Shown: positions 1,524 through 55,808 of the stretch, piece by piece | Numbering within the stretch: position 1 is the first letter of the stretch | Layout of the letters: each line of letters opens with the position of its first letter | From: Kondoa subrosea | Taxonomy: Eukaryota | Reading direction: 5' to 3' | DNA: 64,000 nt | Assembly (NCBI GenBank): GCA_039545335.1 | Contig: BCIN01000001.1 | Span: 1,224,604-1,288,603, forward strand | Position numbers and translations under genes: made by a program | Notes under the pieces: model-generated | Seen by the model: the letters and a program-made list of their open reading frames with translations, nothing else | Told to the model about the DNA's origin: nothing | Database searches by the model: none

Positions 1524-4500
1524 TTAGTACACTTCGTCATCCGGCACGGCTTGCAATTGTTGCATCTCTTCAGCAGCTTGCGACCAATATTTGCTTAGAA
1601 GTCGTTCGCTGGAACAAAAGGTGGAAAGTTCAGCATATAGTGCACCGATGGAGGCTGCGTTGCGTCCAGATGGATGAGACAGGAAGAGTCTATTTGGCAG
1701 AAAGTTGAAGCCTTTGCCATCATCTTGTATCTGGACCAGCGCTGCACCGCTTGAATGGATGAACTGCGTGCTCATGCAAGGTGTCTTCCGATAGCTGTAC
1801 GAGACTTTGAGTTCTGGCGGAAAGCGATGGTCGGCTTCAATACTGTTAATCGAGCTTAGCCAAGCCTCTCCTTTTCCTTTCAGACTTACTCTATGCTAAA
1901 GTCAGAATCTCGACTTTACTGGGAGGGCAAATAGCTCACCTAGTATGTAGCCAAATTTTCTGAGTAAGCAGTGCAGATACTCCTCAGAGTCTTCATTTGG
2001 CCCGCCATCAGGCGGTAGACAAGCTAAGTCGATCACGAGGTATTGATCCAGCGGACATCGTTCGACCAGGTCTGTCGAAAGAGCGCGTCAGTTGCAGAGC
2101 GACTGCTCCCCACATTCGCTTACCTGCTACAGGTAAAGTAGCGGAGAAAACTAAACGCAAACCGTATCTATCGATCATTCTGCCGTATGTCTTGATCAAT
2201 TCGTCCACCAATTGAGATGTCGAAAGCCAATTAAGTTGAAAGTGGAAGCATCCTGCGCTTCACTCAAATGGATGTAAGTCTATCGGTAATCTACTTACCA
2301 GCTGGATTATGGACGCTTTGCAGTCGAGTCAGCAAGCATTCGGCGTGCACCGGATTGACCTACAGACTGGAGATCTATCAGCAATATACTGTACAGCAGA
2401 ACTAGTAGACCAACTCTTTGTGTAGCTGAACTACTTCTGCTCGATCACTTTTTCGCTTGTCATCTAAATCGATCTACAACAACATCAGCTTCAATCGCCT
2501 CTAGCGGTAATAACGTACCAGCAGAGAATCACTCATAGCAATGCGGTATTTTGGTTCAACTTTAACATCGCGCAGCAGCGGCAACTCAAACAGATCTGGC
2601 GAGACATGATCCGGGCTGCTTTTAGAAGTGGTTGTATCGAGATCTTCCCTTCGAAACCATGCCTTGTTGGTCTCATCTGGAACGTATTCTGCATTGAGAC
2701 TGAAGAAATGAGGACCACTATTCTAATCGTCAACAAAAAGATTCGGAATGAAAAAAAATGGAAGAGTTTACTCTACCAGAGTCTTCTGAGCCCCGGCTGC
2801 TGTGAAAAGACCTTTTTCTTGGAGTTTCTTGCCTTGGATCAAAGCTTCGTCCCGGCTGCCGACATCGATGTAGCTGAACATCATTCAGCTCAAAGAGAAT
2901 GGATTTTGCTGCATGCTCACGACTTTGTGAGCCAATCAATGAATTCCGCGCCAACAAAAGAGTTCGGATAGTTGCGTAGATGCCATCTGAGAAGGTCGTC
3001 AGCATGATACATCACGCAGCACCACGAGTCTGACCTTTTGGTCTCCATTGGCACACCGAACTGCTCACTCAAGAGAGCTTGTGCAACCTCTTCAGTCGTA
3101 CAGCTCGCCAATGTCTTGCTTGGCTTTTTCCTAGCTCCATCAAGTAGCTCCTCGTGTTGAATAGTTGCCAATTCTTCCTTGACATGTTTCGAAGGTAATC
3201 TTCGGCTGACATGAGCGCCGGTCCAAAGACCAAACGCGGTGCTTACAAATGGGGTGTGAACTTGTAGGAACTATTTCCAGATGTATTGATCGCATCTACC
3301 CAACGCTGACTCTGAAGATTTGTGAAAAGTTTGACAATCCCAGTGAGCCTAATATCTTCATCTGTAGAACCTTCGTCCAGTCCATCATTGTTGCTTTTCA
3401 CTACCGACTGTCGATCACGAAAGGGGCAAGGTATGATCCTGATCAAAAGTCAGGAAGAAAACGAATGGGAAGGGCAAGCGTACATGAACCGCGCTCGGAT
3501 GTAATGAAGGCCATCTTTCAGCTTAGTGAGTTGTTGAGAGCCAGTGATGGCGCCATCTATGTACGGGAAGTCAAGGCAGTCCTCATCCCTGCGTACGGTT
3601 GTCAGCAATCCAAGGCGGGAGTAATTTGCGACATACCGGTCACTATAGAGTAGTCAGCATCATCTACGGGTAAGACATAGATCACTAACGTATAGTTGAA
3701 CGTAGTGTGCCACTCCCTAAAAGTCGTGGAGAGATCGGGACATATGACAAACTTGTGCGGATAATGATCTTTCGAGAAGTACTGCTCCCGAACGTAGACG
3801 GTGACCTGTTCTATACCTTTACTCTCTACACAAGCGTCAAAGCGGGAAAAGAAACAACGAACATCCATCTGCTGTCTGTTTGCATTGTATGCCAAACGAT
3901 GCACATGTCTAGCGTAGCACATATAGATCTGTGACAATGCATCAGTCATTGTGTTAGTGTCGTGATATTGACATGATTGACCGGCTTGCCAGCGCCAGCT
4001 GTCCAGTATAGTATCGACAGGATATCGGCCGTCGAAGCCATGTTAGGTAATCGCAATGCAGGATCTCGAGGTGCATTGATCAGCTGAAAGCCTTGTTGCA
4101 ACCGGTGGTAAATCTGCAAATGCACGTGAGCGACGAGCTTTGATACCTTAATAGTGCCTTACCATTTCTCGCAAACAAGCTGCTACTTGATGCTCTTGCT
4201 TCTCGTAAGCTCTCACAAAGAGCGTGGCTGTAGCTGCGGTGACCGGCATAGAATATGTTCCTGAGCTATAACAAGACTCTAGCTCGGAGAGCGATGGACA
4301 CCAATCGGTAGTAAGAGGTAGCAAAGCAGGCGAGCACAAAGATCTGCGCATTTAGTGAGCAGGTCGCACTTGAGGAATGTGTTCTGAGACCTACTTCCAC
4401 TTGACCGATCTTTGATCGGACGGTTTCCGCCATCGCTGATGCTGGGCAAGCTTGAAGATCTTCTTACGAGACGGGTTCGAAGGATCCAAGAGGAAGCGGG

Positions 4501-7178
4501 GCTGTTTGTTCTTCTTCACTCGTGAGGTGCCGATCATCTCTTCTGGCGATGATGAGACTTCTGGAAAAGTAGTTTCATTTGAGGCTTCAATTTGGGGAAC
4601 AGGCGGTTGAGATGTATTGAGAATAGATATGGGAATAGCAGCAGGCGGTTTCGGATCTTCTGACGGTAGAGAAGTAGTATCGACTTTTGGAGAAGCGTAA
4701 GGGGATTTTGCTGCTACGAGATTAGGTTCGACTTGTTTTGATAGGTCGAGATCCGGAGCGTTCTTCGATTTGCTGGAATTTGATCCCTTGAAAATGTCGA
4801 ACCAATGACTTTGTGAGACCTTAGCTGGCGCTGGAGCAGCCATAGGAGCAGAGCTGACAGATGAAGGAGCTTTAGCTTGAGCTGAAAATCTTGCGAGAAG
4901 AGCAGGCGTAAACGGAGCCTTATTGGTTGAAGCACTGGCTGGTACTCGACGGACAGAAGACACCACAGAGGGTGTTTGTGCTGCTGAAACTTGCCGAGAA
5001 TGTGTGATCGGTAGATCATCTGACAGAGAGACTGTACTGGATATCAAAGGATCCGTGCTGACTACCGGTGACACCGATGGTACTCTAGAATGAGTTTGAG
5101 ATTGAAAATTGCGTCTGACTCCGTCCAATGTTGGCTTGTCGCGCAATCGCGAGAATGATTGTCTGGGCTGAATTTGCATCTGCTGTCTCCTGACTTTGAT
5201 AATTCCTTGTCTGTTCCCTCCACAAGCCAGGTTGTCTGCTTCCTCTCTCAATTTGCGACGCGTGTTTGCGTCCGATTCTCTGTAGTTACTTGACTGTTTG
5301 AGTAAAGGGAGACTGATCGAAGCGTTTTCGCTCTCTGCTGTGCCAAGCATTTCCACTTGAGGCATTCTGCAGCGAGTCATGAAACGATCGATGCGGAATG
5401 GCTTATCGGGCTGTCGAGAATAGAAGGCTGCGTCCAAGAATTCTGGAACTGCATAAAAGGTCTTTACTGCGCTTTCGCTTGATGTGGAATCATGGTAAAG
5501 GGGATCAAGTTCTTCTACTAGAGCCGAACCGTCTCGACTTTTTCGAGGTGGATTGAGTATGACAGAAAGGGAGTCTGGGTTTTTGTTGTTTCGACTGCCA
5601 ATGAGTAGAGGTGGGTTCTTTTTACGAATTTCCTGCTGCCAATCTTGCACAAAAGGGTTTTCAGAGGTGTAGGAGAAGATAGGTACTTCATGCAAAGGGC
5701 ATTTTGCACAACTGACGCAATCGACAGTCAAACCAAGATCAACAAATCTTTCGCTTGTTAGCCGTAGCAGGTTCTTGTCTACATGAAAGTAGCCGGTTCC
5801 AGCAGTAAGAAGTATGATGGTCATGCCGCTTCTTTGAAGATCTCGATCCTTTTCAACGGTATCAAACTTGTTACCGGTTTGTCAGAACGCCACAGCTTAC
5901 CATATAGCGCTTCTCAAATTGCTTGCTCGCTAAGTTCAACGCTTCCAGTACACAGCCTTCATGAGCTGCACTAATTCTTCCAGCCAAACCACCATCAGCT
6001 CTGGCACTGTATTCGAGCAGTACACTCTTCTGAAACCTAAGCAGCTCTTCCCGCAGCCTTTCCACAACTTTTGGTCCAGAAATACCAACTTCGAGATTGA
6101 TCAAAGCTTTGTAAACATCAAGGCATTTTCGACCCAAAGGATCGATTGTTAGACTGCTCGTGTGGTTGAGCAAAGCGATCTCATAATCTTCATAAAGAAC
6201 TCTAGAGAAGAGGATAATAGAGACTGCATGATTCGTGCCGTGAGCTTGCCAACGTCTGAAAAGTTCAGGTAAGAAGAGTTCGACCATTTTCTCGTGGAAC
6301 AGCTGGAAGAAGAAGAACTTAGGTTTTAAAGTCGCATCGATTAGAAGTGAAGATCTTGCTTACGCTGCCATCCACATCGAAATTCCAACATTCCGAAGAG
6401 ATCTGCACGAAGATATAGACTCGAGCGCTAAGACTTCGATAGACGATTTTGGTGGCAGCGGAAACGTAAGCTGAACGACGTTTCTTTCCTTTAATCCAGA
6501 TTTCTCCAACTCGTACTCTGATCCCGCTACCAGGTAGAACGAGCCTTTGACCGACCCAAATGCATTGATTGACGAGGAAAAGACTTGTTCGCAGCATATC
6601 TGCTCGACCTCTGTTGGAGTCATCGATCAGGATTCGATACAGAGATAGATTCATAGCGCACAAATACGTGTCTTTGAAGAAGATCTCCACATGAGAACCA
6701 CAGTATTTGCGAGGCAACGGACTCGGTAACTTCAGCAATGAAATATAAGCACAAAGCGACTGTGGACGTCGGGGATAGCACCTTAGTAACGAGCACCTGA
6801 TCTCTGTTGGACAAGCCAAAGGCATGCGCAACAGCCTTGTCGATGGAGATCTACCTTCAAAACATTGGTATGCTTGATTGATTAGAATGGACAATTCCCT
6901 GAACTCGCCTGCATTTGCGGCTGCCTCTCAATGAAGGCCTTGTCATAATCTGCGACACGGAAAACCAGGCCATCAGAAGCATTATCGTCTGATTTGACAG
7001 GTCCGGCAATAGGTTGCAGGCGAAGATTGCCATGCAGATCAGACCGAATAACAGAACTAGCGGCTTGCAAGTGAAGAAGGTCTCCTTCCTGACAGCCCAG
7101 AAGCGCAGCAGTCGCGGGATTCAAAATGACATCTTGAGCTGTCTGCAGGTTATCGTGCAGCCAGAGAGTGAGGTCCAT
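1524..7178 (-). CDS. IML1: Vacuolar membrane-associated protein Iml1/Sea1 (DEPDC5; GATOR1/SEACIT subunit), multi-exon
   Basis: Motifs VEIFFKDTYLGRADM, RSLSARVYIFVQISSECWNFD, ELFLPELFRRW, ILLTAGTGYFHVDKNLLRLT, SLCSPALLPLTTDW, the DEP domain RWHLRNYPNSFVGAEFIDWL, DLVHNPAGCFHFQLNW, and C-terminal FGYILDIEA...QFIHSSG. Stop at 1524. Confidence 0.93.
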
Positions 7179-17022: not shown

Positions 17023-18254
17023 TCAATAATGAAGCTGTAAGCATGGTCAATAAGCGAGGTCAGGCTGAATACTCTGGCGCCTACATCTTGTTCTGGCCAT
17101 TGAATGTCCTGGAAGTTGATCAGCATCTGCTTGACCATAGATAAGTGAAGTCACTCACCCTCTTCTCGTCTGCTTCGTCTTCGTCGGCCTCTTCGTCGAA
17201 CTTCCAAAGCTTTCTCTTGCCCTGTTGTCTTTCCGATGACCTACAAGCCGACGTCAGGCACGTTCTCATACATCAACATTACTTACCAGTCAATGGTATC
17301 GGGAATGACTACAAGCAAAGCGTAGTGATCAAGAGCCTGCTGATGTGTGTCCTTCTTAGGCGCATCATCGTCATTGAAATCTTCAGGGCCAGGTAGCTGT
17401 TTGCTTTCTGAACGAAAGCAAGCATAGATATGAGCGAACGATGTCCTGATTAGAGAGGCTTATAACATACTGTTGCCCATCGGTGTTCCAACTGGTGTAC
17501 CAGGAGCATTAGCTCTGGCATAATCCATCTTCCTTCCTGGTTTCAACGTTGAGAGATACTTGCCGCGCTCGTTCTGAAGCCATGTTAGACAAGACTATAT
17601 CTCATTTGGTAAGGTAGCTCGACTCACTAGCCAAACAGCATCGGATGAATTTGAATCGACCAAGAAGCTGTCGCCTGTTATGCGAAATTGCTCTCGTTCC
17701 TTCTCAAACCAGTAGACAAGTTCGACATTATGGTTTGCTCGGACTTGTTCAGCTTTAGGTGATCTATATGAAGACTATATTAGCTATTAATTCAAACAAG
17801 AGGATGCAGCATACCTGCTGTCTGTACCGATAAGAATAGCATAGCGACGAGCATGCGACATGAAGAGTAGATCCTATCTTCCGAGTTTAGCTTAACATTC
17901 ATTACAACACTCAAAGAGCCCGGAACGTACAGCATGCCCAACCATTCTCACTTTGGGTTTGCCTTCGGATATTGTAGCTAGAGCCATAGGAAACTGTGTC
18001 GACCTTGGATCTATCGGAAGGACATTTCTTTCAAGGCGATGTCCGGACACTGCTCATCGCTATCGCTTACCTGTCGGAATGAGGACAGCAGAGATCAGTA
18101 CGAGATCATATGGTACAAGGTAGGGGCTTGCCTGGAGAGTGGAAATGGCTCAGATCCGTTCGAAGCTTTTCAACCCTTTGAAATCTCGTAAGTCATGCAT
18201 TGCGGGTCTCAGCATTACTCTGCTGTACCATGTTGGCTCTATAGTCGGAGCCAT
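17023..18254 (-). CDS. Pyridoxamine 5'-phosphate oxidase-like FMN-binding protein (Pyridox_oxase_2 / Alr4036-type)
   Basis: Hand-spliced MAPTIEPTWVEKL...MALATISEGKPKVRMV...GTDSRSPKAEQVRANHNVELVYWFEKEREQFRITG...YALLVVIPDTIDW...WPEQDLHY*. No single ORF in the track represents it. Confidence 0.78.
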
Positions 18255-18648
18255 GATGTTGGTGCACAAGTCAAGAGCAAGGGCAAGCTGCTTGACCGTC
18301 GAGAGCAAATCGCAACGAATCCGATGTTCAGGCGGTGTCCTGACTTTGGTAAGGGCGAGGGCAGATGCTACAATCATGTGTTCTGGCAACTCTAGGTACA
18401 AGCGCGTGATATTTACAGCTCTCTCCGACGAGATATATGTAATGCCATAGGTTGGTACTCCGCTCTCTAACCGAACCGTATGCGGCTTGACTGTGGGCTT
18501 GCAAGCGCGTTATGCAGCTGCGTATTTGCTGCAAAAGAAGACCTGAATCGCCAATACGGAGTGAAAAAGATATAATAGACATCAACGAGACTTACGAAGC
18601 GACGCAAGGCGGACTTTCACCAGGAAAGCAATGACAGCTTCATCTTCA

Positions 18649-19254
18649 TTACGAGTTCTTGATGGCGTACTCCAGCAGATCACGCATCTCTTTCAACTGA
18701 ATCTCTTCCAGCTTCCGTTTTTGAGCTGGATCATTCGCAGATCCTGCCTTTTCTACTGAATCGACAAAAGCTTTAGCTTGTTTGGTAGAACCATGAGTTG
18801 ATAGAATGACGGGGTGGGAGATCCGGCTGAGCCACCATTTACTGCGCAACAGTTCTGACTATCGATGATTGTCTCTGATGTTTCTCTCGAAGGAGCTTAC
18901 GAATTCCACTTCATCCGCAAATCAAGATATGAGAAGTAGTGAGATCAAAAGCACGCACGAAATCGCCCTCCCGTCTATGCAAGATAGCATGCCACAAGTT
19001 CGAAGTTTGATCTGAATCGTTTGCTTGAGCCAACTCATGACAGTTATGGATATCGTCATTCAGGAGATGTAAGCCTTGATACGAGGAGTCTGATACGCGA
19101 ACAAGAACGGGGCAAGATTCAGCTGACCAGCTTTGACATTGCTTGATTTCTCTAAGGACTGGATTTGAGCGGTCAAGGAAGGATCATAGATTTTCTTGGG
19201 CACCAGAGAAGGTAAGGGACTGCGCGAGAGCAGCTGTTCCTTGAGCTCTTGCAT
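18649..19254 (-). CDS. Conserved hypothetical protein with HAILHRREGDFWNSKWW motif
   Basis: Four exons give ...AGLHLLNDDIHNCHELAQ...NLWHAILHRREGDF-WNS-KWWLSRISHP..., including an 8-nt exon at 18901-18908. Confidence 0.75.
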
Positions 19255-19490
19255 TCGGACTAATGACGTCGTGAGCGGAAGAAAACTTCGATAGAGAGAG
19301 AGAGAGGCTGATACTTGGTCCAGGTACAGCTAAAAGATATGCAATACGTATGTAAGGTATAGGACGACGTGTATATACAAAATGAATTGTCCGTTTCGCG
19401 AAACATGTAGGACACATAATGCTGACATCAGCTGCAACCCTTGATTTGGGCATGATCGATAGCGGTTCTATTTACTCCGTGAATTGTTGA

Positions 19491-19767
19491 TCAACCCTTG
19501 CAGCACCAGAAGCCTAACATGAAATATTAAAATCAATCGAAAAAGGGAGGCTATCATATTGTACGCACAGGTTAAGAGTTCCGATAGACCTAAGGTAACT
19601 ACACACAGGCTGATACGAGCCAATCCACATCCGCCTCGCAGTCTCAAGGGCTCCTCTTCTCTCGGCATTGGTTCTCGGGCTAGAAAACGAGCCTTTTCTT
19701 TCGCTGACATTTCAACAGGGATTACTTGAGCTGGGATGGTAGTGGTCTGTTGAGTGGTACTTCGCAT
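19491..19767 (-). CDS. Small protein with LRLRGG motif followed by a hydrophobic Cys-rich tail
   Basis: ATG 19767 gives MRSTTQQ...EEEPLRLRGGCGLARISLCVVTLGLSELLTC. One GT-AG intron (gtgcgt...gttag) is followed by FWCCKG*. Confidence 0.65.
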
Positions 19768-20189
19768 AATTGGGTGCTTGCTTGTGAGCTTGGGGTGATT
19801 GTTTGAAAGCAAGCAGCTGCAAATTCCAATGGAGACTGCGCATCGCCTTCGGCCAAAGACGCGAAGGGGGACTCGGCGCGGCGAACAGCAGGGGATAACG
19901 AGCGCTGAGGATAGCAAAGGAAGCAGATAACGAGGCAGAGCAAGGACAAGGCATAGATCCACACGGAACCAAAAAGCAAGAAGTCCGATTACCAAGCCTT
20001 GAGGACCTGCTTGAGACTAACGACGGCGAGCCACTGTGCAGTGTGTATGCGTGAATACTTGAAGAGCAGCGCAGAGGATGGCTGCCTCGGTAAGAAAGAG
20101 AAACCCTGATTTGTTGGCTTGCTTACCTAAGCAATTAAATCTTCGCTCTCTCTCTTGCCTAGCACTGTCACGTCTTGTCTCGACCAGCC

Positions 20190-21208
20190 ATGACCACCAA
20201 GCTCGCCAGCAGATTCATCCCAACGGCCTTTCATGAGCATTTACGATGGCTGCTGATTCAGTCGCTAAAACTTGGTCCGCTGCCTCAACATGTGTCTATC
20301 ATTATGGATGGGAATAGACGCTGGACAGAAAGAAGAGGTGAAAAGGTGACAAAAGGACATGTGAAAGGCTTCGAAGCACTAAAAGGCGTGAGTTTCTATA
20401 TGCTTCGGAAAAGACACAGGTCTCAAACGAGTGATACAGCTGCTGGGTTTCTTCCTCGAACTCGAAGTATCTATGGTCACAGTTTATGCTTTTGCTGTGG
20501 ATAACTTTAAGCGCTCGGAAGAGGAAGTGATATGTCTCATGGATCTTGCGAAAACGAGGCTGAAGGAGTTGGCAAGTCATGGGTGAGTTCTTGGTGAAGT
20601 CGCACATCTTTCTAGCTGACATTATTCGTAGCGATTTACTACAGCAATATGGTGTTCGCGTCTTCATTATTGGTCGGAAAGATCTACTACCTGAAGATGT
20701 ACAATTAGCTTGCGAAGAGATTGAGCATACCACATCTTCGAATACAAGGTAAGCTCGAGTCATTTGTCTCCTAGATCCACTGACATTCAATGCAGAGGAA
20801 CACTGAATGTCTGCATTGCATACTCGGGGCAAGAAGAGATCGCTTCAGCTATCCGTAATCGCGTCGCAGTAGAGGTCGAGAACCCTTCACTGTCGATAGA
20901 CCCGATATCAGGACTGGAAGAGCACCTGTACACAAGTCGAAATCCGGTTTGGCGAAATCCGGATGTACTAATAAGAACCAGCGGTGTCAGCAGGCTGAGC
21001 GACTTTCTACTATGGCAGGTAAGATGCACTCTCTCCATCCGTATTTCGGCTCAGGCGTTCATTCCAGGTCTGCCAAAACACTTCAATCTATGTTTTGCCA
21101 TGTCTTTGGCCAGAGATAGGCGTTGCAGACATCCTTCCTATCATACTTGCATGGCAAACTGAACAGATTATACGATTTCTGCTCGGATTATTCTCCATTG
21201 TAATTTAA
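20190..21208 (+). CDS. RER2: cis-prenyltransferase (dehydrodolichyl diphosphate synthase catalytic subunit)
   Basis: PQHVSIIMDGNRRW, VTVYAFAVDNFKRSEEEV, LNVCIAYSGQEEI and PDVLIRTSGVSRLSDFLLWQ are cis-IPPS conserved regions. Confidence 0.92.
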
Positions 21209-23075: not shown

Positions 23076-23482
23076 GTCGCTTCGATACGTAGCAGCTGAA
23101 TGTGCAGCACGCAAACTAGCAAATCAGATGCGAAAAGGAATGTCCAGTATCGTCGTTCGAAGCAAAATAACTGCGGCCAAAGAAGATCGAAGAAGGGCAG
23201 TGGTGACAAGCACTTTTTGGCCCATGTAAAGCCCGTAATTTGCAGAGCTTATCATAATGCTCCTAGATTGTAAGCTTGAGGCAGTTCTCGCACATGATGA
23301 CCAATATTTGGTTGTCAGTGTCATTTCTGCGAATTAGAAGTAATTAATGTGGAATGAATGCGAGACATGTAGTCGAGAAAGGAGAGTATATCCATCGTTC
23401 GCTGTCGCAACTGACTGTACAGACTGTTGCAAGATAAGCTATATTTTGCTTTTCTTCTCGTAACGACTTTTTCGAGGCAAAG

Positions 23483-29092: not shown

Positions 29093-29249
29093 GCTTTGTG
29101 TTTGCTCTCGACCAATATCAACGAATACCATTTGAACACAATCTCCATTGCACGTGTATACCTCAATTCAAGACTACTACCTGTATACCCTGTGACTGCC
29201 TGGATTCTGCTTCTGCTCGAAAACGCGCTGAAGCCCCCGCCTTGATTAC

Positions 29250-32200: not shown

Positions 32201-32570
32201 ACTTTTGATCAAGGGCATCCCTCGAATTGTGATTTTGGGCATTTGGTCAACATGAGTCCTGTTGTGGTTACTGTCAAATCTCCAATGGAAGTGTTGCAAG
32301 AAATTTTCGTCAAGGTGGGTTCCGCATTAGTTCAGAGCATAAGTTGTTGACGGCAAGTCAAGCTCGGTGTCAGGCACGTCATTGTTCTAGACGAAAACTG
32401 GGCATATGCTGGTGTTATTAGCAAGGAAGCTTGGATGGGGTATCTGCAATGTGCGTGCTTTTCCAATGCAAATGATTTTGGACTAATATTGCTGTGCAGA
32501 TGCCGAGAAGAATCATCTCAAACATGGTCATTCTACGACTTATCAATCTAGCAACAATTGTTATGCATAA
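29250..32570 (+). CDS. GEF1: CLC chloride channel / Cl-:H+ antiporter with C-terminal CBS region
   Basis: CLC signatures GSGIPE, GKEGP (gating Glu), [23 protein letters not shown] and MFELTG. Which GEF1 paralog this is has not been determined. Confidence 0.92.
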
Positions 32571-33720: not shown

Positions 33721-36700
33721 ATGGCAGCAGTGACTGAGATTGAGGCCGACGTCAGCGAAACGCCTAATCTCACGCTCCGCCAACCTCAGCAAGGTGTCAA
33801 ACTGCGTCTGTCGAGCTCACAGCTGTCCCCGGATGCTCTGCCTGCTAGTGCCAATCTGTTGAGCATCTCAAACACCTTTGGTTGGCTGGCAGCTGCAGTC
33901 ATTCAAGCAGATGGTTCCCATGCTTTTGTGCTGTCTTCTCTGGAAGCTGTTCGCTCGACATTCGCAAACGCTGAACGAAATTCGGATGTCACTTTACAAC
34001 CTACTCGCACAATCTCTACTGCTGCTAAGATTCTCTTCTTGCAATTCGCTTTCGCGGACAAAGTTATTCTGGCATTGTTGGAGAATAATCAACTGGCAGT
34101 GTATAGGCTAAAGGCGCTGGTAGATGGATCTTCAGTCCGTATCTCTGCCGTATCACCTTTTTGTTGTCTGATTCGTGCGAGAAGCTATCGCCAATTCATG
34201 TCTTCCCTCTCAATGCATCGACTGTAGATCTACTTCCAAATCCAGCTGACCGACCTGAATTAGTCGCGCTTTTGACAAGCAATGGTCAGATTACTCTTCT
34301 CAATCTGGATACCAAGTCGGAAACAGGCACTTTTGGTCAATCACTTACTTCAGGTGAGCCAGATCTATCTTTCTGCTAGGGCCAGATCTGATAGAGCAAA
34401 TAGCATGCTGGTCGGTGAAAGGAAAACAAATCGTCTGTGGTACTTCAGCAGGTCAACTTCTTCAGATTTCCCCCGAAGGTCAAGAGAAAGCTTCAATTCC
34501 TATACCTCCAGCCTTGGCTTCCGAAGCGCATTCAGTCATTGATATACGCTGGCTCGAAAACGACGTCTTTCTGGCTACTTACTCTCCAACGACTCCGACT
34601 GGCATTCCAGATACTCCAATCTACACCATTACCCGCACCAAGACTTCGCTTGAATATGCTCGTTTCGTTGATGATCCTGCTGCTGCTATGGGCTCATTAG
34701 AAGAGCGACCACCAAGACGATTCACAGCGGCAGTAAAGAATTGGCAACCTTTCAAGCATCTAGTCTTTTCTGCCAATAGTGCATGTTCGCAAATAGCAGT
34801 TCTAGGAGCTCAAGCTTCCTCTTCTTGGGCTACATTGGATCTAGATGATGCTTCAAGACCTTCACTTCCTTTCTCCAGCGATGATAGCGACACATGTCCC
34901 TTTGGTCTTGCACTGGATTTTACGGCCTCGGCTGGAATTCAAGTCTCTGCTGATCCTGATTCTCCTTTACCTCCTGCTCCGTTACTGTACGCGTATAATA
35001 GCGATGGTATTCTGCTTACGTGGATGGTGCAAAATTCAACAGAAGGTTTTCCAGCTTACCGAACACCTCGTAATGTTTTGACGCAAGAAGAAGCTTCAGC
35101 TGAATCACAAGCTGCTCCGATCCAATCTCAAGCTGCTACTGCTTCTTCTCCTGCAGCGAAACCTTCCCCTTTTGGTGCTACCTCAATTCCAGCTTTTGGC
35201 GCGTCTACCTTTGGTTCCTCTACTTTTGGCTCTTCCAGCACGGCATCAGCCTTCGGCGCTCCTGCTTTCGGATCTAAAGCCGTTCCTGCTTTCGGCACTT
35301 CGACAGCAAGCGCAACCCCAAGCGCTTTCGGTGGATTTGCAACAAACAATACAACGACTGCTTTTGGTTCCAAACCTGCTTTCGGCTCCTCCGCTTTCGG
35401 TTCATCTTCTTTTGGTTCCAAACCAGCTTCTACAACGCAACCTATAGCGGCAAGTGGAAGTGCATTTGGTTCGTTTGCAAGTAAATCAACTGGATTTGGA
35501 TCTTCTGCTTCTGGTTCTTCTTCACCTTTCGGAGCAGCAGCAACCAATAATTCTAAGTCAAGCGGGTTTGGTGCTTTTGGTGCTTCAACTACACCGAATA
35601 CTTCTTTCTCAAGCAACGCGTTTAAAAGTACTGCTGGTCGAGGAGAAAGTGGGTTAGATGAAGATGAGGATGAAAAGAAACCTGCTCGATCTGCACCTGG
35701 ACTGGATGATGCTGATATTGATGAATTGGAACCGGAATCTAAAGGAGATGGATCAGCGAGTTTGGGTTTTACTGGATTTGGGTTAGGCAGTTCAACAACA
35801 CCAACTTCAACTCCTTCGAAACCTCCTACTTCAACTTTTGGAGCTCCTTCCGTTGGGTTTGGCGCATTTGCTAAGCCTGCAAATACTCCTTCCATGGGTT
35901 TTGGATTTGGTTCATCGGCTGCGCCCCAATCAACTAATTCAGCCGCTGTTTCTGCCTTTGGTCAGAAACCGGCTTCAACTGGATCCGCTTTTGGTAGTGC
36001 TACACCCACGTCTTTCGGCAGTACCCAATCTAAAACAGCATCACCCTTTTCTTTCAAACCTCAAGAACCTGCTTCGTCTGTGGACAGTAAAGCAAAGAAT
36101 CCAGAGGTAGTCAGTACACCACTAAGCTTCTCTTTCTCTCAATCTGCAGCAGCTCCTTCAGCATTCTCCTTTACTAAACCTGCAACAAGTTCTACATCTG
36201 CTACGAGTTCTACACCTGCTCCTTCTGCTTTTTCCTTTGCAAAGCCTCAAGACTCTACAACACCTGCTGAAACGTCTTCGGCTAAATCTGTCGAAAAGCC
36301 AGCAGATCCCTCGTCGACTGTACCTGCTGCTTTCTCTTTCGCCAAACCAGCGGAAAGATCGGCTAGCGGAAGTACAGTACCCTCCGCTTTCTCTTTCGCA
36401 AAGCCTGGTAATGCATCCACTACATCATCAGCTTTCTCTTTCGGCAAACCAACAGAAACTCCTAAAGCTCAAACCGCCGACCAACCGTCTGCCTCTTCTG
36501 CATTTTCCTTCACAAAACCTGCAGCAGCTACTTCTACATTCTCTTTTGCTGCTAAACCTGCTGAGACTATCAAATCCGCTCCGCTCGTTGCAGATTCAGA
36601 AGAGAAGAAATCCACTATTCCAGATGCTTCTTTACCTTCTACTTCGAGCTCGCCTTTTGCTGGCTTCGGATCAAAGATGAACTTTGGTGCAGTAGGCGAT

Positions 36701-39363
36701 AAGTCTCCGAAAAATACAGAGGATCAGAGACCTCCACTTCTGAAATCACCTTTTGGCGGAACGTTCAGCTTCGAGCAGAAATCGGGCGAGAAGAAAGAAG
36801 ACTCTGTCACAGAAAAGGCCAAGTCCGCAGAAGGGAAGAAAGACAAGCCTGCCGATAACAAAGCAGAGCAGAAGACGCCAGAGCAAATCTCATCGGAATC
36901 AGGAAAATCTCGAACCAAATCGTTGATGGGTTTCTCTAGCAGTCCTCCCCCTGGTCGTGCTTTGTTTCTATCTGAACAACAAGAAGAGGGCGCAGATCAA
37001 TCGCAATCTGGTAGCAGTGAAGCTTCGGAGCAGCATGCTGAATTGCAAGAAGTCAGCAGCGAAGGTGAAGAGGAGCTCGAACAGGCAAGTCCAGATGAAG
37101 GATCTGGTGAGGAATACGGTGAGGAAGAGGAAGAGCAGCAGGAAGGTGACGAGACAATTGCGCAAGAGAGCGATGCTTCAGAAGAAGTCGAAGAAGAAAA
37201 TGAAGTTTCGCAAGATCCCTCAGCATCTGCAGAGAATGAATCGACCGAACCAGCAGCATCTCATGAGGATGTCAAGCAAAAACCTGAAGCACCAGCATCG
37301 GGACCTGCTGCGATAAACCCAACCTTTTCCTTCTTGCCTTCGAACAATACTCCGGTCTCGGTTTCTCAGGCCACGAAATCGCCTTTTTCTTTCGCTTCGT
37401 CTGCATCTTCTGCCACACCTTCCCAAAGTGCTTCGTCACCATTCGCGGCCTTCAAACCAACGGGACCGTCCAGCTTTGATTCAGGTTCCGGTATAGCAGC
37501 TGCGGACGCCAACAAGCCCAAACCTTCTCCTTTCTCATTCGCAGCTCCGCAACCCAGCAGCGCCACTCAACCCTCTTCTTCCAAGTCATCATTCTCCTTT
37601 GCTGGAGCGACGGCTGCGGCACCTCCCGCATCAGCTTCTTCCGACTCAAGGTCAACCACACCAACCCCCACTTCAGCAGTAAAGACTATGGCTGCCAAGA
37701 TCAATCAGCTCTCCTCGCCTGAAGATTCAATACCAGTGCCTGCTCCGGCTGCCCTGCCAAAAGCGTCTCCCTTCGGCTTCAAGGCGCCTCTATCTTTTTT
37801 TCAGCCTGCTGAACCATTAAGAACCGCTAGCACATCGAACATGAAGCCAGCGGTAGGAAAACAGCAGCCCGAAGCGCCCAAAGAGTCACAGAAACCTGCA
37901 CCATCTTCGCTGAGCAATGTCTCTGTGCCACGACTAGCGTCGCCAGACGTCAAGCCAGAAGCAGGCGAAGAAGGAATGGGCGGCGAATTTCTCAAAGTCT
38001 ATCGAATAATGGAAGCAGAACTGCGCCTAGTAGGTCATGCTACAGAATCTTCCGTAATAAACTTACATTCCCTTTGACAGTTGCACCAAAATACTCAACT
38101 TTGCACCGATTTCATTTCGCGTTTCAGACGACCGCTCCAGCCTGTCGAGGATTTCCCCGTATCTCTGAAAGAAGAGGAGTGGTCATTCGGCGATCTTCCT
38201 CAGCTCGCCAAAGTCTGCAATGCGCTGAAAGAGGATATTACCAAAATCAGCGAATCTAGCAACAAGCAGAATCGCAGAGCGGTAGAATTGCGGGACCTGG
38301 TATTGAAAAGTCAGCTGCTTGTAGCTACTTGAGTGCTCAGACTGACCTATGAGTAACAGGTGATCTGAAGCGAGAAGAGGCAGCTCGCTTCATTCGAGCC
38401 AAATCAGATCCAGAATTCCGCAAGATGCTCAAAGTGCGACAGCTTGGTCCGGAACAAGTGGAGAATCAGAAGACATTGCGACAGAGTAGTCAGGTATTTC
38501 ATTCTCCACAAGAGTGTGATAATTGCTGATACAACATTTCAGCGCGTATACGAGTCCTTGACACAGCTAGAAGAGCAAGTAGCTGTATTGAAAGCCAAGC
38601 TAGACGAAAGGAAGTCTGGCCGTAATGCATTGAAGTGAGTCGCGCGGTTTCTATAGTGTCAGCACTGCTGAGCACGATGCTTAGAACACCTCATTTGGAA
38701 TCGATTACTCGGACAATACATAACATCTCGTCAAGCTTGAGGCAGCGTATCAGCGAATTGGATCGTATGATTCTGGACTTGGAAATGAATCAGCTGAAGA
38801 GTGGCAAACTTTCCAAGTCGCCCTCTAAACCGAAGTCCAGATCCAATACCGACACGGGCGCTGCGGACAATCAGACGACTCCAGAAAAAATTGTCTCTGG
38901 TCCTTCGGCTGAAGTTGCTAGCATTGTCGCTGCAGCTCTCAATACCGAACGAGCAGGAAAGCTACTGAAGTCAACTCTGCTACAAATGCGACCCAAGCCT
39001 CAATTTACCAAGGTTTCGAGCGAATCTCCTTCCAACGAATTTGCCGATCTCCGTTCCGCTTTCGCCAGAGCTCCGATAACAAGTGATAAGCTACCGACGC
39101 CTCGTCGAACCGCTCCCTCTCGTGATGCAACTCCAATGCGACCAACTTTCTTTTCTCTCGATCATGAAGACGACGAAGATCCCGCCTCGCCTTCTCGTCC
39201 TTCATCTAGACCTCAACCGACAGCCAATAGAGGCAGACCGAGCCAGACTTTCAAGGGAGTCTCCCTCTCGTTGGCAGGAGATGAAAGTAGCTCCGAAGAG
39301 GAAGGGAGCGAAGAGGAATATGATACCCTGCAGGATATTGAAGAAGGTTCAGAAGAAGGATAG
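33721..39363 (+). CDS. NUP159: Nucleoporin Nup159/Nup146 (NUP214): beta-propeller, FG repeats, coiled coil
   Basis: N-terminal propeller (ACWSVKGKQIVCG, IRWLENDVF, PPAPLLYAYNSDGIL), SAFG/xFG and AFSF repeats, and C-terminal coiled coil with LKVRQLGPEQVENQKTLR. Confidence 0.88.
35160..37640 (+). repeat. Coding FG / FSF nucleoporin repeats
   Basis: Many (S/P)AFG(S) units at ~35160-36020, then (S/A)FSF(A/T)KP units at ~36040-36560 and ~37320-37610. Confidence 0.85.
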
Positions 39364-47947: not shown

Positions 47948-48505
47948 TCACACCAGGCTCGGGTTTTGGGTATAAAGCGTCGTTCGCAAAGGAAGAGCAA
48001 GAGATTTTGTTGCTTCTTGTCTCTTCGCCGTAGCTTCGCTTCAAGGTATCTGTATGGGCTGCCAGGCGTAGCAAAGGGGAATGAGATTCGCCTCAGAACA
48101 TGATGAGTTAGACGACAATGCATAATCTAAATTTGCCTATCGAGGAAATACCGCAAGGCTCTGCCAAGGCCTGATCAATCCTGCTGTTTATATCGATACT
48201 GTACCAAATTGATGTTCTTCCATATTTTCCTGCTCTCCGACTCATATTCAAACCAAAACCTGTATTATGTCTTCTTGAACTCTCCTACATATCATATACC
48301 TATCATGCTAGTCGAGCAACTTTGGCGCTCGCAAACCAAAACCGACGACGGGATAAGCTAGAAAGAGCCGATTTCTTAAGATTCACCATGATATCAGGTG
48401 ATAGATGGCAGAGTTGACACAGAGGAAGTGGAGACAGGAAGGAAGATAGAAAGACATTAAAAGCAGAGCAGGTCTTCGATCACGCCAAACAGCTGTTTTA
48501 ATGCA

Positions 48506-49191
48506 TTACTCTGAGACGTAAAACCCATACTGCGAAGTTGTCCATATAAGCGAGAGTGCTGTTTTTCACATCAGCGATCTCATTTACTATTCAGAAGGAG
48601 ATTGTGACTTACTGCCTACTACTGTCGGGCTGAGGAAAGGCACATCGATTCTAGCAGTCTTGAAAATGAGCAGCTCCGAAGTATAGTGAAGCAGTACGAG
48701 GATGTAAGAGAGCAAAGTGATGGTGTACCATCTGTACGAAACCTACTTGTTCAGCGAAACGATACAGCTAAAGAGGTAGACGAAACGTACGATTTGTCTG
48801 TGATGTTGTACGCTGCGAAGATTCTAATTGCTGCACTTGTCAACGTCCAAAGCCCAAACGTTCTTCCCTGCAATTCAGTAGCTACGAGAGAATTAAGACT
48901 TCAGCGGAGGTTAATGGCACAGAGCACAGCGCTTACCTTCATGAGGTTTGACGCCGTACACGCGTTTCGTCAGCTTTGTAGTGACGAAATTCTGAGCAGT
49001 ATTGAAGAGGGCCAGTAGAGAGCTATAAAGATCGGAATTCAGCCTTAAATGCAGGATGTAGCCTTAATTTGACTTGCGTAAAAAGAAACCAATATGGCAG
49101 ATCTGCGACAAGTCAGCGAGCGAAGCAGGCTCCCAGATATTGACTCACATCCACCGGCACTCTCAGGTAAGTACTGCGTAAATCCACCCAT
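48506..49191 (-). CDS. ERG28: Ergosterol biosynthesis scaffold protein Erg28
   Basis: Six hand-spliced exons give MGGFTQYLPESAGGYLPYWFLFTSLLALFNTAQNF...KRVYG...LQGRTFGLWTLTSAAIRIFAAYNI...LHYTSELLIFKTA...SPTVVG.LSLIW. One intron is GC-AG. Confidence 0.88.
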
Positions 49192-49387
49192 GACTGACCG
49201 AGAGAAGAGTCAGAACGGAAAAAACTTCAATCTTGGCGTGTTTTTTTGTGCTGATTAGTCAGCAAAAGTCAAGCGATTCTAACACATTTGAGCTAGGAAT
49301 AGGAAAGAGCCCAGTAATTAAAAGTGCAAGGATTGCATAAGTGAATGTACAAGATGAAAGCTCGAACACGAATACCCTTTGTCCCAT

Positions 49388-50770
49388 CTATGCTTCTTCT
49401 TCTTCCAAAAACTTCAAGCAACCAACACCACAGCCTCTATAGCGGATCGGCAATCCTCCACTGACTTTTGCTCCAGGTAAATCTGTGACCCATTCCAATC
49501 TCTCCACAGCATGTTGCACAAACGATTTTGGTTCAAAAGGATTGCTTTGACCTGGATGAATGCGAGCAGCGCAGATATGACCTAAAGGATCGTACTCTGC
49601 TTCAGATGGTGACAATTGTGATGAGAGACCAATCTGAGGTAGAAGAGGAGCAGAAAGATGTGAAGGAAGGTACTTGATTTCGTCTGCTTGCCAATTTGCT
49701 AGATGATGAACGTTGCGAACAATAGTAGAAGCAACAGCTGAGGCTTGAGAAGTAGTGCGACGAAGTTTGTTCGGGACACGCTGGTTTGCTTTGCGGTAGC
49801 ATGCTTCAAGTAAAGAAGGAACGCGATTGATGACCTTTAGTGGGCCGAGAAGTCGACTGGAGGCGGCATGTAGAGTTGCACCACCTTCTGTTGCATCCAG
49901 GAAGGGATTGGGATAGTAAAGAAGAGTGGTAAGCTCCAACTTGCGAATCTCAGCCGGCAGGCATGTCTAGACAACAAATCAGCTCGGTGTTTAAGAAGCT
50001 TCAAGTGATTTCCTCACAAGCTTGTTATTGGCAATATTGAGATGTCTGAGACCAGTAAAGCGAGCGATTGAGGTTGGTAAAGCCTCTAAGTTGTTGTTGC
50101 GCAAATCCAGAACAACAAGATTGTCGAGCTCGAAAAAGCGGACTGGAAAAGAAGAGAGGGAAAGGAAGTTGCTATCAAGGATGAGGTGAAGAGAGCTGAT
50201 GGATTTCTCGGCCGCTGGTGTGCTAGAGGGACCAAAGAGAGTAGCGGGAGAGCTTGATGTTCGACCAAATCCTCTTTTAGCTCCGAATGTTCGGCGAGCG
50301 GGTTGAGCAGTGATGTTCTGTTCAACGATAGACAATCCAGCCAGGAAAGTGCTGAGCTTGAGATCACCAATGCGAGGGGAGATAGCGGTCAAGTTTTTCT
50401 CGCTGAACGTTTTTGTTCAGCTATAATCTACTTCTGGATCGAAAGGATTGGCTGACCTGAGATCAACACAGATGTCCTTGCCAGTGGTGTCCATAGCTTC
50501 GTTAACGATAGCATCCCAGTCCAAGTCTACAGTCGACACGGTGCTTTGACTTTCCGGTGCATAATGTTGAATTTTGATGGGCTTGATTTCAACCAAAGCG
50601 GGACGGGACCTGACCTTCTTCTCTTCGTCAGGAGGACAGAACAAGCTCTCCATGGATACGTTGTCAGCAATATTGGCTAAAGGTTTGCGAGCCGCTCTGG
50701 TCGCTCTATTTTCCAAGCTTTCGTCTGGGCATTTCCAGTTGTTGGCGTTCGCAGAGTAGTGTAGTGCCAT
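49388..50770 (-). CDS. Leucine-rich repeat protein of unknown function
   Basis: LRR units LVVLDLRNNNLEALPTSIARFTGLRHLNIANNKLTCLPAEI, LRR cap YPNPFL, VPSLLEAC and a Cys-containing C-terminus. Confidence 0.78.
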
Positions 50771-52738: not shown

Positions 52739-53298
52739 TGATGCGCCAGATACCGTGCTCGATAAAGCCTTAGCCTTATCAAAAATTATGCAAGCTTTTA
52801 CAACTCAGTGCCGCTGCCCTACCTCGATTTCTATGGCTTCTGTGCGTTGCGTAGCAGAAGAATCATCGATATGCACTTATATCGCCAGCGAGATTTTATC
52901 TAATCTTCCAAGTTCGGCTTGTTTCAGCATGATGAAGCTCGACCAAATATTGGTCTGAACAAAGGCTACAACCAGCTCTCGCCTTTCATATATCGATTTG
53001 TCTGATGAACAGGCGCGACATTGGGCAGGCCAGCACTTGATTTGGATTACATAATCTTCTGCAATCCATACTATCTCTGGCAATCTCTCCTTAGAACATC
53101 GTCCCTGCGCCTTCACTAGCTCCTTTTCTACTTTCCGTGGGTAACTTTTGCTTTTGGCATACTCTCCCACCGCCCTTCGATGCACCGATCGCGAACCGCG
53201 TCTTTGTTTGTGCCTTTGTGACCCACGACGGGGAATTGAACAAACAATACGCAAGGCTTGACCATGAACGTTTTGCAGAACTCCTGTCTATAAATGCA

Positions 53299-55213
53299 AT
53301 GCAGCAGCAGCAGCAGCAGCAGCATGGCGTTTACCCTCCAATGGGATCACCGAGCAGTACAATAGACAGTCCTTCTCTTGAAAAAGCATCGCTCTTTGAT
53401 CTCTCGCCAGCAAGCGAATGCTTGTCTGAAGATCCTAATGCACCTAAAGGATGGAGGAGGAGAGCAATGATAGGCATCAGTATGATAAATTTCTTCCCTA
53501 CGTAAAGTGTCGGCTAAATTCAATACAACAGTTGCTCTGTCCTGCTTCACTGTTGGTCTCAACGATTCTGTTACTGGTGCTCAGCTCCCTTCACTGTGCG
53601 AATACTATGACAAGACACATGCGCAAATCTCGGTCATCTTCGCTGCTCTTTGTGTTGGATACGGGATAGGTTGTTTATCCAATAGCGTCACTGTGCGAGA
53701 ACAAGGGATAGCGATCACTCTGTGTTGTGCTGCAGCAATTCACTGCTTGGGCGCTCTTTTGATGGCTCTAGTATTGCCTTTTCCCGCTGTGATATTCGGG
53801 ATGCTCTTGATGGGATTCGGTGGGGGACGTGAGCAATATTGCTGCTCTGCAAGCTTGCTTCACTAACTTTATGCGTAGATATCGATTGTTCAGCGACCTC
53901 CATGCTGGCTCAACTCGGTGGAAGCACTCTTATGAATGTCATCTATTCTACTTTCTCGGTAAGAATGCACATGGATTCAGTATAGTTTGTGGCTAATCAG
54001 GATTTGAATTTGTCTGCAGATCGGCGCAGTAAGCTTTTGGCAATTGTTCCTTGCTGCCAAGTCTTTAGCACAGATTGATAGATGACAGCACCTTTGCTTG
54101 TTGGTGGAATGACCGATGCTTCAGTGCGATGGAACTACTACTACATCGTACCTTGTGGTCTCTCCGGAATCATTGGGTGTTCATCATTATGGATATTCTG
54201 GCGTTACAAGCTACATGAAGAAGAAGGATCTCACAACGTTTCAAACCTTCAGCGAGCTAAAGCAACTTTAACAACGCCCGGAATCGCAACTGGAATCGTT
54301 CTTGCTTTTCTTACCTTTGGAATAGTTGAGATCACTGCCAATGTGGGTCATTTCTACTCGAGAAGGTCTTCAATAATAATTGCTTTATGTGAATCTAGTG
54401 GACCACGAGCTACCTGATCGAGGTCAGACATGCAGGCGAAGCCTTTTCACGATATCAGGTTGCATGCTAGTAAGGTTTCAGCCCATCGTGTTCCACCTGC
54501 GCTAATATAGTACAGCTGGGCTGGTATTTGCCTGGGCAGACTGTTCATGGCCAGCGCGATGAAATTTGGAGCAAGACGTGTGAATATCGGCATGCTTCTT
54601 GTTTCGGCTGCTTTTATAGCTGGTCTTTGGAGAACACATAGCGAAGCAGGACAAACCGTTATGCTTGCTTTCAGCGGGTTTGCTATCGGGTGAGCACTCT
54701 CTCATGGCGCGTTTTGTCTTGAGCTGAAACGAATCAGGCCTCTCACTCCCAATATCATTTCGCTTGCGAGTTCTCGAGTGCGCCCGTCTCTGACCAATAC
54801 GGCAGTCAGCTTTACTCTCAGTATGTCCCATCGGGGTGAATGGGTTATCCGCTGAGTATGGTTTTAGCTCCTGGTCTTGTTGGCGCAGGCTCAATGCCAG
54901 CCATATTCGGCGCAACTGTGCAACAAACTGGTTTGCACATTCTGCCGCCGACACTTGTCAGTAAACGTTCTTTTAAGCCGCTGACAAGCTAATACGATTT
55001 CTGCAGATTGTCGTGTGCTCAATGATAGCGCTCGGCTTCCTATTACTACCTAAAGCATCCAAAATCGCTCTGCCACCTACACCGAGCGTACAAGAAACAC
55101 CTGATCCTCTTCTGTCGTTACCTACTCTTCATATCAGCAGATCTGACACGGGAACTAGTACTGTGGCAACAACGGAATTGAGAGAACACCGAAACGAAAT
55201 CATACTCAAGTAA
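53299..55213 (+). CDS. Major facilitator superfamily transporter (FucP/Bsc6-like)
   Basis: FTVGLNDSVTGAQLPSL, many TM segments, FSIGAMTAPLL, YWAGICLGRL and GFAIGPLTP. The start codon is uncertain. Includes a 9-nt exon at 54020-54028. Confidence 0.8.
53302..53322 (+). repeat. (CAG)7 microsatellite encoding polyQ at the MFS N-terminus
   Basis: atg(cag)7cat is seen directly in the sequence. Confidence 0.85.
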
Positions 55214-55565
55214 GATTGTAGAAGAAGAACCGGCAACATCAAATTGTAAATCAAGAAGATCGTTATAAGGATCGTTTCAACAAAAAAGTACATATCATGG
55301 CATACTAAAAAGGGATTTGTGTAAGTGTGCATCAAATGTAATCAAAGGAAAAAGGAAGCGAATTTGCTATGCATCAAACGGTTGATTATGGATTCCATCT
55401 CTTCTATACATTCATCTTACATGCCTGTTGTCGCTCGCGCAGAGCGGAAGGTTTGGCTTCGACCTTTTGACTTGAATGAGTTCTATCGCTGCCAAACATA
55501 GTTCAGAAGCATAAGACTATTAGGATATATCGCGCTCACTGTATGGCTACGGCTATGGAGAAGGC

Positions 55566-55808
55566 TCAAGCTTTCTTCTGCTCCCCTCTTCGGCCAGCAT
55601 TGACATCGATGAACTACATAGCGAGAGATTTAGCTCAGCAGCAATATTTTATGGCATGAGATGGACCTGATAGAGAAAGATCAAAGCTACAGCCAGTATA
55701 GAGGAGCCATTGGCAATGTTAGCCAAAGTAGTATCGCTAGAAGCAGAACACTCTTTGCATCAGACTGAGAATTCTGTTGCACCCTATTTGATGCGCATAC
55801 GTGATCAT
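55566..55808 (-). CDS. OST4: Oligosaccharyltransferase subunit Ost4
   Basis: Three exons give MITDTTLANIANGSSILAVALIFLYQFIDVNAGRRGEQKKA* (41 aa, one TM). This matches the Ost4 pattern MI(T/S)D..L...A...LI.LY.F..VNA. Confidence 0.82.

Follow-up and report, generated by a model that had tools for sequence, protein, structure and literature searches.

Ultra-short exons and rare non-GT-AG introns predicted by protein homology in four genes of a 64-kb, Pucciniomycotina-like genomic window

RESULTS

Gene content of the window

The window analysed here is a 64-kb stretch of DNA (~46% G+C) crowded with eukaryotic genes that are split into many short open frames. Four of these genes carry homology-supported internal microexons of 1, 3, 5, 8, 10, 10 and 11 nucleotides (nt), together with further small exons of 15-28 nt, and these exons and the short introns that bound them are the subject of this report. 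Pfam analysis of the open frames yielded about 20 genes, namely TBCD, IML1/DEPDC5, a SEN1 helicase, a cis-prenyltransferase, a FAD oxidase, a P5-type ATPase, a CLC channel, NUP159, a ThiF/UBA-type enzyme, a GH3 beta-glucosidase, UTP15, LRR, PHD and MFS proteins, and others. By protein similarity, the ATPase and the CLC protein find their nearest named relatives in Pucciniomycotina (Mixia, Phenoliferia, Rhodotorula and allies), at 60-77% identity across one exon; no record of an identical protein exists.

Homology modelling covered four genes: the P5-type ATPase (plus strand, 23360-29089), the CLC channel (plus strand, ~29244-32549), the GH3 beta-glucosidase (minus strand, ~45700-42700) and IML1/DEPDC5 (minus strand, 7172 to ~1533). 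The protein-to-DNA spliced aligner used here (BLOSUM62) accepts introns in any phase, provided that they measure 35-400 nt and have GT-AG, GC-AG or AT-AC termini. For rival in-frame models, each candidate mRNA was built and its peptide compared with every homolog by local alignment. An intron score model combining donor, branch, acceptor and length was trained on supported introns, with leave-one-out scores given where stated. All counts take in homology-supported junctions only, and ab initio models served as leads only. The exon sizes listed in an earlier note on this DNA were matched to modelled exons by size. Coordinates are collected in Table 1.

Table 1. Small exons and introns with non-GT-AG termini in the window (slashes mark splice junctions)
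Feature	Gene	Position	Strand	Sequence context and support
1-nt exon (A)	IML1/DEPDC5	1890	-	AG/A/GTAAGT; introns 1939-1891 (49 nt) and 1889-1843 (47 nt)
3-nt exon (TCT)	IML1/DEPDC5	2366-2364	-	Introns 2414-2367 and 2363-2316, 48 nt each; adds one Leu (HKDLVHNP)
17-nt exon	IML1/DEPDC5	2299..2315	-	Directly after the 3-nt exon; intron 2298-2253 in 6/10 spliced alignments
Candidate 6-nt exon (TGACCG)	IML1/DEPDC5	3642-3637	-	Alternative is a single 101-nt intron, 3689-3589
GC-AG intron	IML1/DEPDC5	6908-6851	-	CAG/GCGAGT...GGTAG, 58 nt; in 9/10 spliced alignments
Likely AT-AC intron	SEN1	10791-10742	-	AAG/ATCAGT...GTGCAC/AG, 50 nt; splice-signal score
16-nt exon	P5-type ATPase	25169-25184	+	Flanking introns in 9/9 homologs
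10-nt exon	P5-type ATPase	26007-26016	+	G-FKF of the GFKFYRDS motif; 9/9 homologs
11-nt exon	P5-type ATPase	26071-26081	+	YRD-S; 9/9 homologs
24-nt exon	P5-type ATPase	26260-26283	+	7/9 homologs; upstream intron ends AAG (26259)
GC-AG intron	CLC channel	30554-30604	+	GAG/GCGAGG...TTGTAG, 51 nt; splits GKEG/P; 10/10 homologs
8-nt exon	CLC channel	31247-31254	+	KL/PA/GIFIP; 10/10 homologs
28-nt, 26-nt and 10-nt exon run	CLC channel	31566-31593, 31649-31674, 31727-31736	+	Four bounding introns in 10/10 homologs
AT-AC intron	GH3 beta-glucosidase	44559-44507	-	TCTG/ATAAGT...CTTCAC/ATTGG, 53 nt; 3/3 homologs
5-nt exon (AGAAA)	GH3 beta-glucosidase	44970-44966	-	3/3 bacterial GH3 homologs
21-nt exon	GH3 beta-glucosidase	45048-45028	-	Immediately before the 5-nt exon; 3/3 homologs
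15-nt exon	GH3 beta-glucosidase	45517-45503	-	LCLQ before DGPAGIR; 2/3 bacterial homologs
Candidate 9-nt exon	MFS transporter	54020-54028	+	Ab initio only; in frame, single 123-nt intron equally possible

Microexons within conserved motifs

In the P5-type ATPase, the alignments with nine full-length homologs converge on 20 introns (47-56 nt), most of them used by 9/9. The 10-nt and 11-nt exons fall in the GFKFYRDSF motif, every column of which shows ≥90% conservation across 13 aligned sequences. A protein from another assembly (P0001, 93% identical) is colinear with the model over seven introns, the 10-nt, 11-nt and 24-nt exons included, and its source was the only near relative found in any search. 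This protein comprises 418 residues from a 2,772-nt contig and is continuous through the seven intron positions, in window 25530-27132; the contig is probably the transcript of a close relative.

A metagenome contig (L004:2959-5715) encodes an intron-rich orthologous P5-type ATPase that is 58% identical and has introns of 45-80 nt. Several intron positions are common to the two genes, but the ortholog is without the introns that create the 16-nt, the 39/10/11-nt and the 24-nt exons of the window. Its GFKFYRDS region forms one exon of 158 nt, compared with exons of 39, 10, 11 and 79 nt in the window, and HPFY is likewise uninterrupted. Because the ortholog keeps this region intact, the extra introns of the window are not universal, and the sequence comparison suggests either lineage-specific intron gain beside older introns or loss in the lineage of the metagenome contig.

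The CLC channel gene contains 15 introns, 11 of which are used by 10/10 homologs. The leave-one-out score of its GC-AG intron is 25.5.

For IML1/DEPDC5, a word-indexed homolog search found none, and a representative search supplied the 93 homologs, each of at least 900 residues, against which the junctions were compared. The exons between ..FGYIL and IEADHRFP lie one base out of phase, and the A at 1890 supplies the second position of an Asp codon (GAT) assembled from three exons. This 1-nt exon model was the best of five for 72 of the 73 informative homologs, with one tie, and its mean score of 125.7 compares with 115.1 for a 93-nt GC-AG intron that adds Gly and 97.4 for an alternative acceptor at 1889. 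A single 97-nt intron in place of the 1-nt exon shifts the frame and has a mean score of 39.8. The two introns around the 1-nt exon resemble validated introns, with leave-one-out scores of 24.9 and 21.6.

The 93-nt GC-AG intron just mentioned (1935-1843) had been picked by the aligner and gave way to the 1-nt exon model, its mean score being the lower of the two and its donor, GCTATT, scoring -0.4.

The 3-nt exon model was best for 76 of 78 informative homologs when compared with one 99-nt intron, and the introns on either side score 22.1 and 21.5 in leave-one-out analysis. The adjoining 17-nt exon belongs to this best model. The homologs do not favour the candidate 6-nt exon of this gene: of 84 that were informative, 73 were fitted best by the single 101-nt intron and five by the 6-nt model, with six ties. 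The splice signals point the other way, the two half-introns scoring 24.7 and 23.2 vs 16.8 for the single intron; the longest supported intron is 69 nt, and the region is poorly conserved. At the GC-AG intron 6908-6851, reading through meets stop codons and lowers the mean score to 34.9 from ~209.

Sequence that at first sight belongs to the beginning of TBCD in fact encodes the conserved IML1 C-terminus. The IML1 C-terminal domain (1533-1940, minus strand) runs past an apparent stop, TAG 1942-1940, by way of the 1-nt-exon junction. A gene caller that missed this junction would truncate IML1 and might fuse or misplace the start of TBCD, whose coding sequence begins at about 1484. An ab initio 10-nt exon in the same gene (6671-6662) was wrong by homolog comparison.

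The GH3 beta-glucosidase was modelled against three bacterial GH3 genes taken from plasmid records. Its 21-nt and 5-nt exons contribute to KHYMAYE-Q-E-T (a KH[YF]xxxxQE motif), which aligns with KHFAANNQEH in the Bacillus protein. When the 5-nt exon is omitted, the frame breaks and a stop codon follows.

Skipping was also examined exon by exon across the genes. Omission of any one of the 1-, 5-, 8-, 10-, 10- and 11-nt exons places the flanking conserved peptides in different frames (6/6), while the 3-nt exon is in frame. At the level of protein homology, the ultra-short exon pattern predicted from the genomic sequence is real and is found in four unrelated genes.

Intron and exon statistics

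Pooling the four genes gave 63 homology-supported introns of 45-69 nt (median 50, mean 51.0, standard deviation [SD] 4.0), in agreement with the near-uniform intron length described in the earlier note. Their termini are GT-AG in 60 cases, GC-AG in two and AT-AC in one. Position +5 of the donor is G in 59/63, and the base at acceptor position -3 is C in 43, T in 16 and A in four (YAG in 59/63). Internal exons with supported introns on both sides number 55, among which 7 are ≤15 nt, 13 are ≤30 nt and 16 are ≤51 nt.

These counts sustain much of what the earlier note had proposed from the letters of the sequence, with several corrections. Seven of the eleven exon sizes that it listed are supported by homology (1, 3, 5, 8, 10, 10 and 11 nt), whereas the 6-nt exon is disfavoured by homologs; its second 8-nt exon and a donor GTAGAG were not located in the window. 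AAG acceptors do occur, as the four introns with A at -3 attest. Two GC-AG introns are supported rather than the four that had been counted, and the suggestion of up to two AT-AC introns now stands at one confirmed and one likely (Table 1). Its degenerate donors GTGGTC (26922) and GTTCGT (27647 and 27829) are real and lie in the P5-type ATPase, but donors overall are less degenerate than had been stated, given the G at +5 in all but four. A further donor from the same set, GTGCTA (6781), is plausible, yet a GC donor 2 bases away fits equally.

Introns next to microexons are not weaker than the rest. The 13 introns beside exons ≤11 nt have a leave-one-out median score of 22.5 vs 22.1 for the other 50 (p = 0.33), and their lengths are 47-57 nt. 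Within these four selected genes, three or more non-GT-AG introns among 63 has P = 0.049 against a 1.3% fungal background, and one AT-AC intron among 63 has P = 0.006 at a background of 1e-4. At the gene level, where the genes are again selected, 4 of ~20 genes with a microexon ≤15 nt compared with 9% in Coprinopsis gives P = 0.10.

AT-AC introns in GH3 and SEN1

The AT-AC intron of the GH3 gene interrupts the Asp codon of the SDW motif (GGIVS-D-WGG). In the solved chain 7ey1_A, the upstream exon corresponds to residues 271-299 (..LNFQGGVVS) and the downstream exon begins at residue 301 (WGGQW..), leaving one residue for the split codon. No GT-AG pair yields S-D-W at this site, and only shifts of 1-2 nt (TA-CA, AA-AT) give an identical mRNA. 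With the donor ATAAGT and the branch region GGCTTACTC, the intron scores 27.0-27.1 when its termini are swapped (27.0 in leave-one-out analysis), which is the top range of local GT-AG introns.

In SEN1, translation straight through 10791-10742 runs into a stop codon, so the frame requires an intron there. The AT-AC intron proposed for this position is the highest-scoring AT..AC pair on both strands of the window; with termini swapped it scores 27.3, followed by the GH3 intron at 27.1. A GT-AG alternative (10787-10747; 41 nt, donor GTATTC) would add three residues and scores 12.5, which falls under the minimum of 13.7 among 60 validated introns. The third-best AT..AC pair (41494-41443, minus strand; 26.7 with termini swapped) lies within conserved ThiF coding sequence, so a high score alone is no proof of an intron. 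On the combined evidence of splice signals and frame, the SEN1 intron is likely AT-AC. A plasmid tblastn search for SEN1 gave no match.

Elsewhere in SEN1 (11850-11480, minus strand), the helicase motifs DPKQLPPT and IQYRMHP lie in different frames and are joined by the ordinary introns 11779-11707 and 11602-11553. IQYRMHP is carried by a 24-nt exon (11552-11529), and automated models are wrong there.

DISCUSSION

Probable intron definition by the ordinary spliceosome

The window comes from an intron-dense fungus, and its uniform short introns are probably recognised singly by the ordinary major spliceosome, which would place the organism at the dense end of a known basidiomycete trait and calls for no new splicing system. 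Each intron carries a donor (GTNNGY), a YAG acceptor and, 10-30 nt before its 3' end, a CTRAY-like branch site; the major spliceosome would treat each intron as a unit (intron definition). Since such recognition would be independent of the exon, two introns may lie only a few bases apart, so that constitutive exons of 1-11 nt can arise within conserved motifs. At exons of this size the 3' site of one intron overlaps the 5' site of the next, so neighbouring introns would be removed sequentially. The GC-AG introns and the one or two AT-AC introns with U2-like donors (ATAAGT and ATCAGT, with C replacing the last G) would be rare variants handled by the same machinery.

The sequence fits the part of the earlier proposal in which splicing proceeds by intron definition, with a narrow length range and no lower exon limit seen down to 1 nt; a special or altered spliceosome is not needed. 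Relaxed terminal nucleotides, the other element of that proposal, are reflected in the 3/63 non-GT-AG introns (P = 0.049), while the AT-AC pairs follow the known U2-type combination of A first and C last.

Several points weigh against this account or against the strength of the counts behind it. Every junction in this organism is deduced from protein conservation and splice signals, and the one-after-other removal of neighbouring introns is something we infer. The four genes were chosen partly for ab initio hints of small exons, so the density is biased upward. At the 1-nt exon there exists a canonical in-frame GT-AG intron of 105 nt (1939-1835), which would remove three conserved residues (Asp-Ile-Glu) and has a mean score of 101.7 vs 125.7. 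The GH3 evidence consists of three distant bacterial homologs and solved chains; in these chains, residue counts over the 5-nt exon are undecided and the adjacent loop is unaligned. Finally, among the ab initio calls, introns in the prenyltransferase and ThiF genes and the 10-nt exon in IML1 proved false, so calls from signals only are unreliable here.

Comparison with known systems

Ultra-short exons, including those of 1 nt, are already documented in Coprinopsis and Fusarium, and the trait itself is not new. In the long-read annotation of Coprinopsis cinerea, 1,165 gene models (~9%) contain an internal exon ≤15 nt, and the long-read-supported exons include 13 of 1 nt, 57 of 2 nt and 27 of 3 nt (PMC12230235). 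Like the window, this basidiomycete combines short introns with internal exons ≤15 nt, and omission of these exons in Coprinopsis mostly leads to premature stops (PMC12230235). The Coprinopsis microexons have long-read support, whereas those of the window are predicted from genomic sequence and homology. The window also differs in that 4/4 modelled genes carry at least two microexons, often adjacent (10+11, 28+26+10, 21+5 and 3+17 nt), and its host belongs to a Pucciniomycotina-like lineage, unlike Coprinopsis.

The closest counterpart of the IML1 exon is a 1-nt exon of Fusarium CYP621A genes that has transcript-read support; the same source mentions a Phanerochaete P450 with an exon of 8 nt (PMC12940212). 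In both cases the single base is the middle of a codon in a conserved motif, stands in the context AG/N/GT and was recognised from exon phase mismatch and homolog colinearity (PMC12940212). The Fusarium base is a read-confirmed G (AGGGT) in a P450 gene, whereas that of the window is a predicted A (AG/A/GTAAGT) in IML1/DEPDC5. A single-nucleotide exon has also been reported in Arabidopsis (PMC4674806), which points to a major spliceosome able to keep a 1-nt exon. That exon lies in a plant gene with longer introns and another recognition context.

For the termini, one survey gives 98.7% GT-AG among fungal introns, AT-AC introns that are rarer than in plants and animals, and an AT-AC share of <0.01% in model organisms (PMC7072748). 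The window introns resemble the U2-type AT-AC class (mentioned in PMC7072748 and PMC1557818) in combining AT...AC termini with a major-type donor (ATAAGT) and branch and in the joint change of the first G to A and the last G to C. Such introns are reported to be very rare elsewhere; in the window there are one or two per ~65-150 introns, one of them inside the SDW motif of an enzyme. Judged from one window, this lineage may be unusually rich in both microexons and AT-AC introns.

In recursive splicing at zero-length exons (AG/GT juxtaposed within a long intron) and in stwintrons, where a splice signal of an outer intron is interrupted by an internal one, intron units arranged head to tail are removed stepwise and nothing is left between them. 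The arrangement described here would share the removal of adjoining units in steps, but 1-11 nt stay in the mRNA. At 1939-1843 in particular, the base between the two units is kept as the middle base of the Asp codon, which departs from the stwintron definition.

Alternative explanations

An extension of the preferred reading is possible but doubtful. It holds that the window represents a Pucciniomycotina-like lineage not sampled before, where introns were gained beside existing ones. Genome-wide, about 1/8 of internal exons would be ≤15 nt, reaching 1 nt in core housekeeping genes, and U2-type AT-AC introns would stand at ~1%. A literature search on intron density in Pucciniomycotina gave nothing usable. 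If this extension is true, microexon and AT-AC levels would be several-fold to hundred-fold above those of other fungi, and the organism would offer a natural system for obligatorily ordered intron removal and for the lower limit of exon recognition.

We regard as unlikely a modified spliceosome, with changes in U1/U5/U6 or Prp8, that measures intron length, imposes no minimum exon, tolerates varied termini and produces densities that are exceptional genome-wide. The proportions of small exons (7/55 at ≤15 nt and 13/55 at ≤30 nt, compared with ~9% of Coprinopsis genes having any such exon) lean in its direction, as does the metagenomic ortholog with its single 158-nt exon in place of exons of 39, 10, 11 and 79 nt. 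So do the non-GT-AG introns (3/63, P = 0.049 at 1.3%) and the AT-AC intron (P = 0.006 at 1e-4), with the background taken from PMC7072748. These counts, however, are drawn from four selected genes, and the gene-level comparison (4 of ~20 vs 9%) reaches only P = 0.10. The signals themselves are ordinary, as indicated by G at donor +5 and YAG at the acceptor in 59/63 each, and fungi with exons of 1-3 nt are not reported to possess special machinery.

Still less probable is a modelling artefact, in which homology was forced onto the DNA while the true sites lie elsewhere, or in which small assembly errors or decaying loci mimic microexons. The false introns and microexons given by ab initio runs speak for it, as do the canonical in-frame alternative at the 1-nt exon and the fact that exons of 3, 6 and 9 nt are in frame and so dispensable for the frame. 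Against it, the microexons encode near-invariant sequence (GFKFYRDS, KLPAGIFIP, QE of KHxxxxxQE and the Asp before IEAD), with homolog support of 9/9, 10/10, 3/3 and 72/73. Each microexon lies between two full-strength introns of normal length, open exons of 3.1-3.7 kb argue against frequent indel errors, and the pattern is repeated in four unrelated genes.

U12-type introns have the donor ATATCC and the branch-region consensus TCCTTAAC, and their 5' splice site consensus is ATATCCTT (or GTATCCTT). At this site GH3 reads ATAAGTTT and SEN1 reads ATCAGTAT, and the donors ATAAGT and ATCAGT differ from ATATCC. To our knowledge, the minor spliceosome was lost in Dikarya. Although AT-AC are the classic minor-intron termini (PMC7072748), it is highly improbable that these introns are U12-type and excised by the minor spliceosome, given their donors, branch regions that resemble CTTAC and CTGAC like those of local GT-AG introns, and a match to local major introns in both length (53 and 50 nt) and score (27.1 and 27.3 with termini swapped).

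Should transcripts confirm the junctions, IML1/DEPDC5, which is conserved and acts in nutrient signalling, would contribute a 1-nt exon to the known cases. Exons of 3 and 5 nt would join it, as would a U2-type AT-AC intron within the SDW motif of a glycoside hydrolase. With its tandem microexons and narrow range of intron lengths (SD 4 nt), the organism would then lend itself to work on intron definition and on the sequence in which introns are removed. Standard gene finders are defeated here, the ab initio models having both missed and invented microexons, so many long genes will be misannotated unless the methods applied allow for both microexons and AT-AC introns.

Zero-length exons and other observations

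A 0-nt exon, also among the sizes proposed earlier, yields the same mRNA as one long intron, so protein evidence cannot distinguish the two. Two ab initio candidates were rejected: in the prenyltransferase (20965-21018), the abutting introns would remove the conserved coding sequence NPDVLIRTSGVSRLSDFLLWQ, and in the ThiF gene (42006-41951) they would remove coding sequence of the nucleotide-binding region. A further abutting pair (18595-18491, split 53+52) scores 17.6 and 9.3 and lies in a region without a clear gene model.

Among the ab initio runs, a first local dynamic-programming model was discarded after it chained the whole window. The trained model over-called introns, and its parsimony version merged true intron pairs.

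A tRNA scan and an Rfam scan of the 64-kb window gave no match. Two segments, 18100-20100 and 48200-49400, had no Pfam match, and ab initio models there were weak and inconsistent on both strands. By contrast with the intron-dense neighbouring genes, NUP159 has an uninterrupted exon of 3.6 kb (34404-38029, plus strand) with long FG/SAFG-type repeats.

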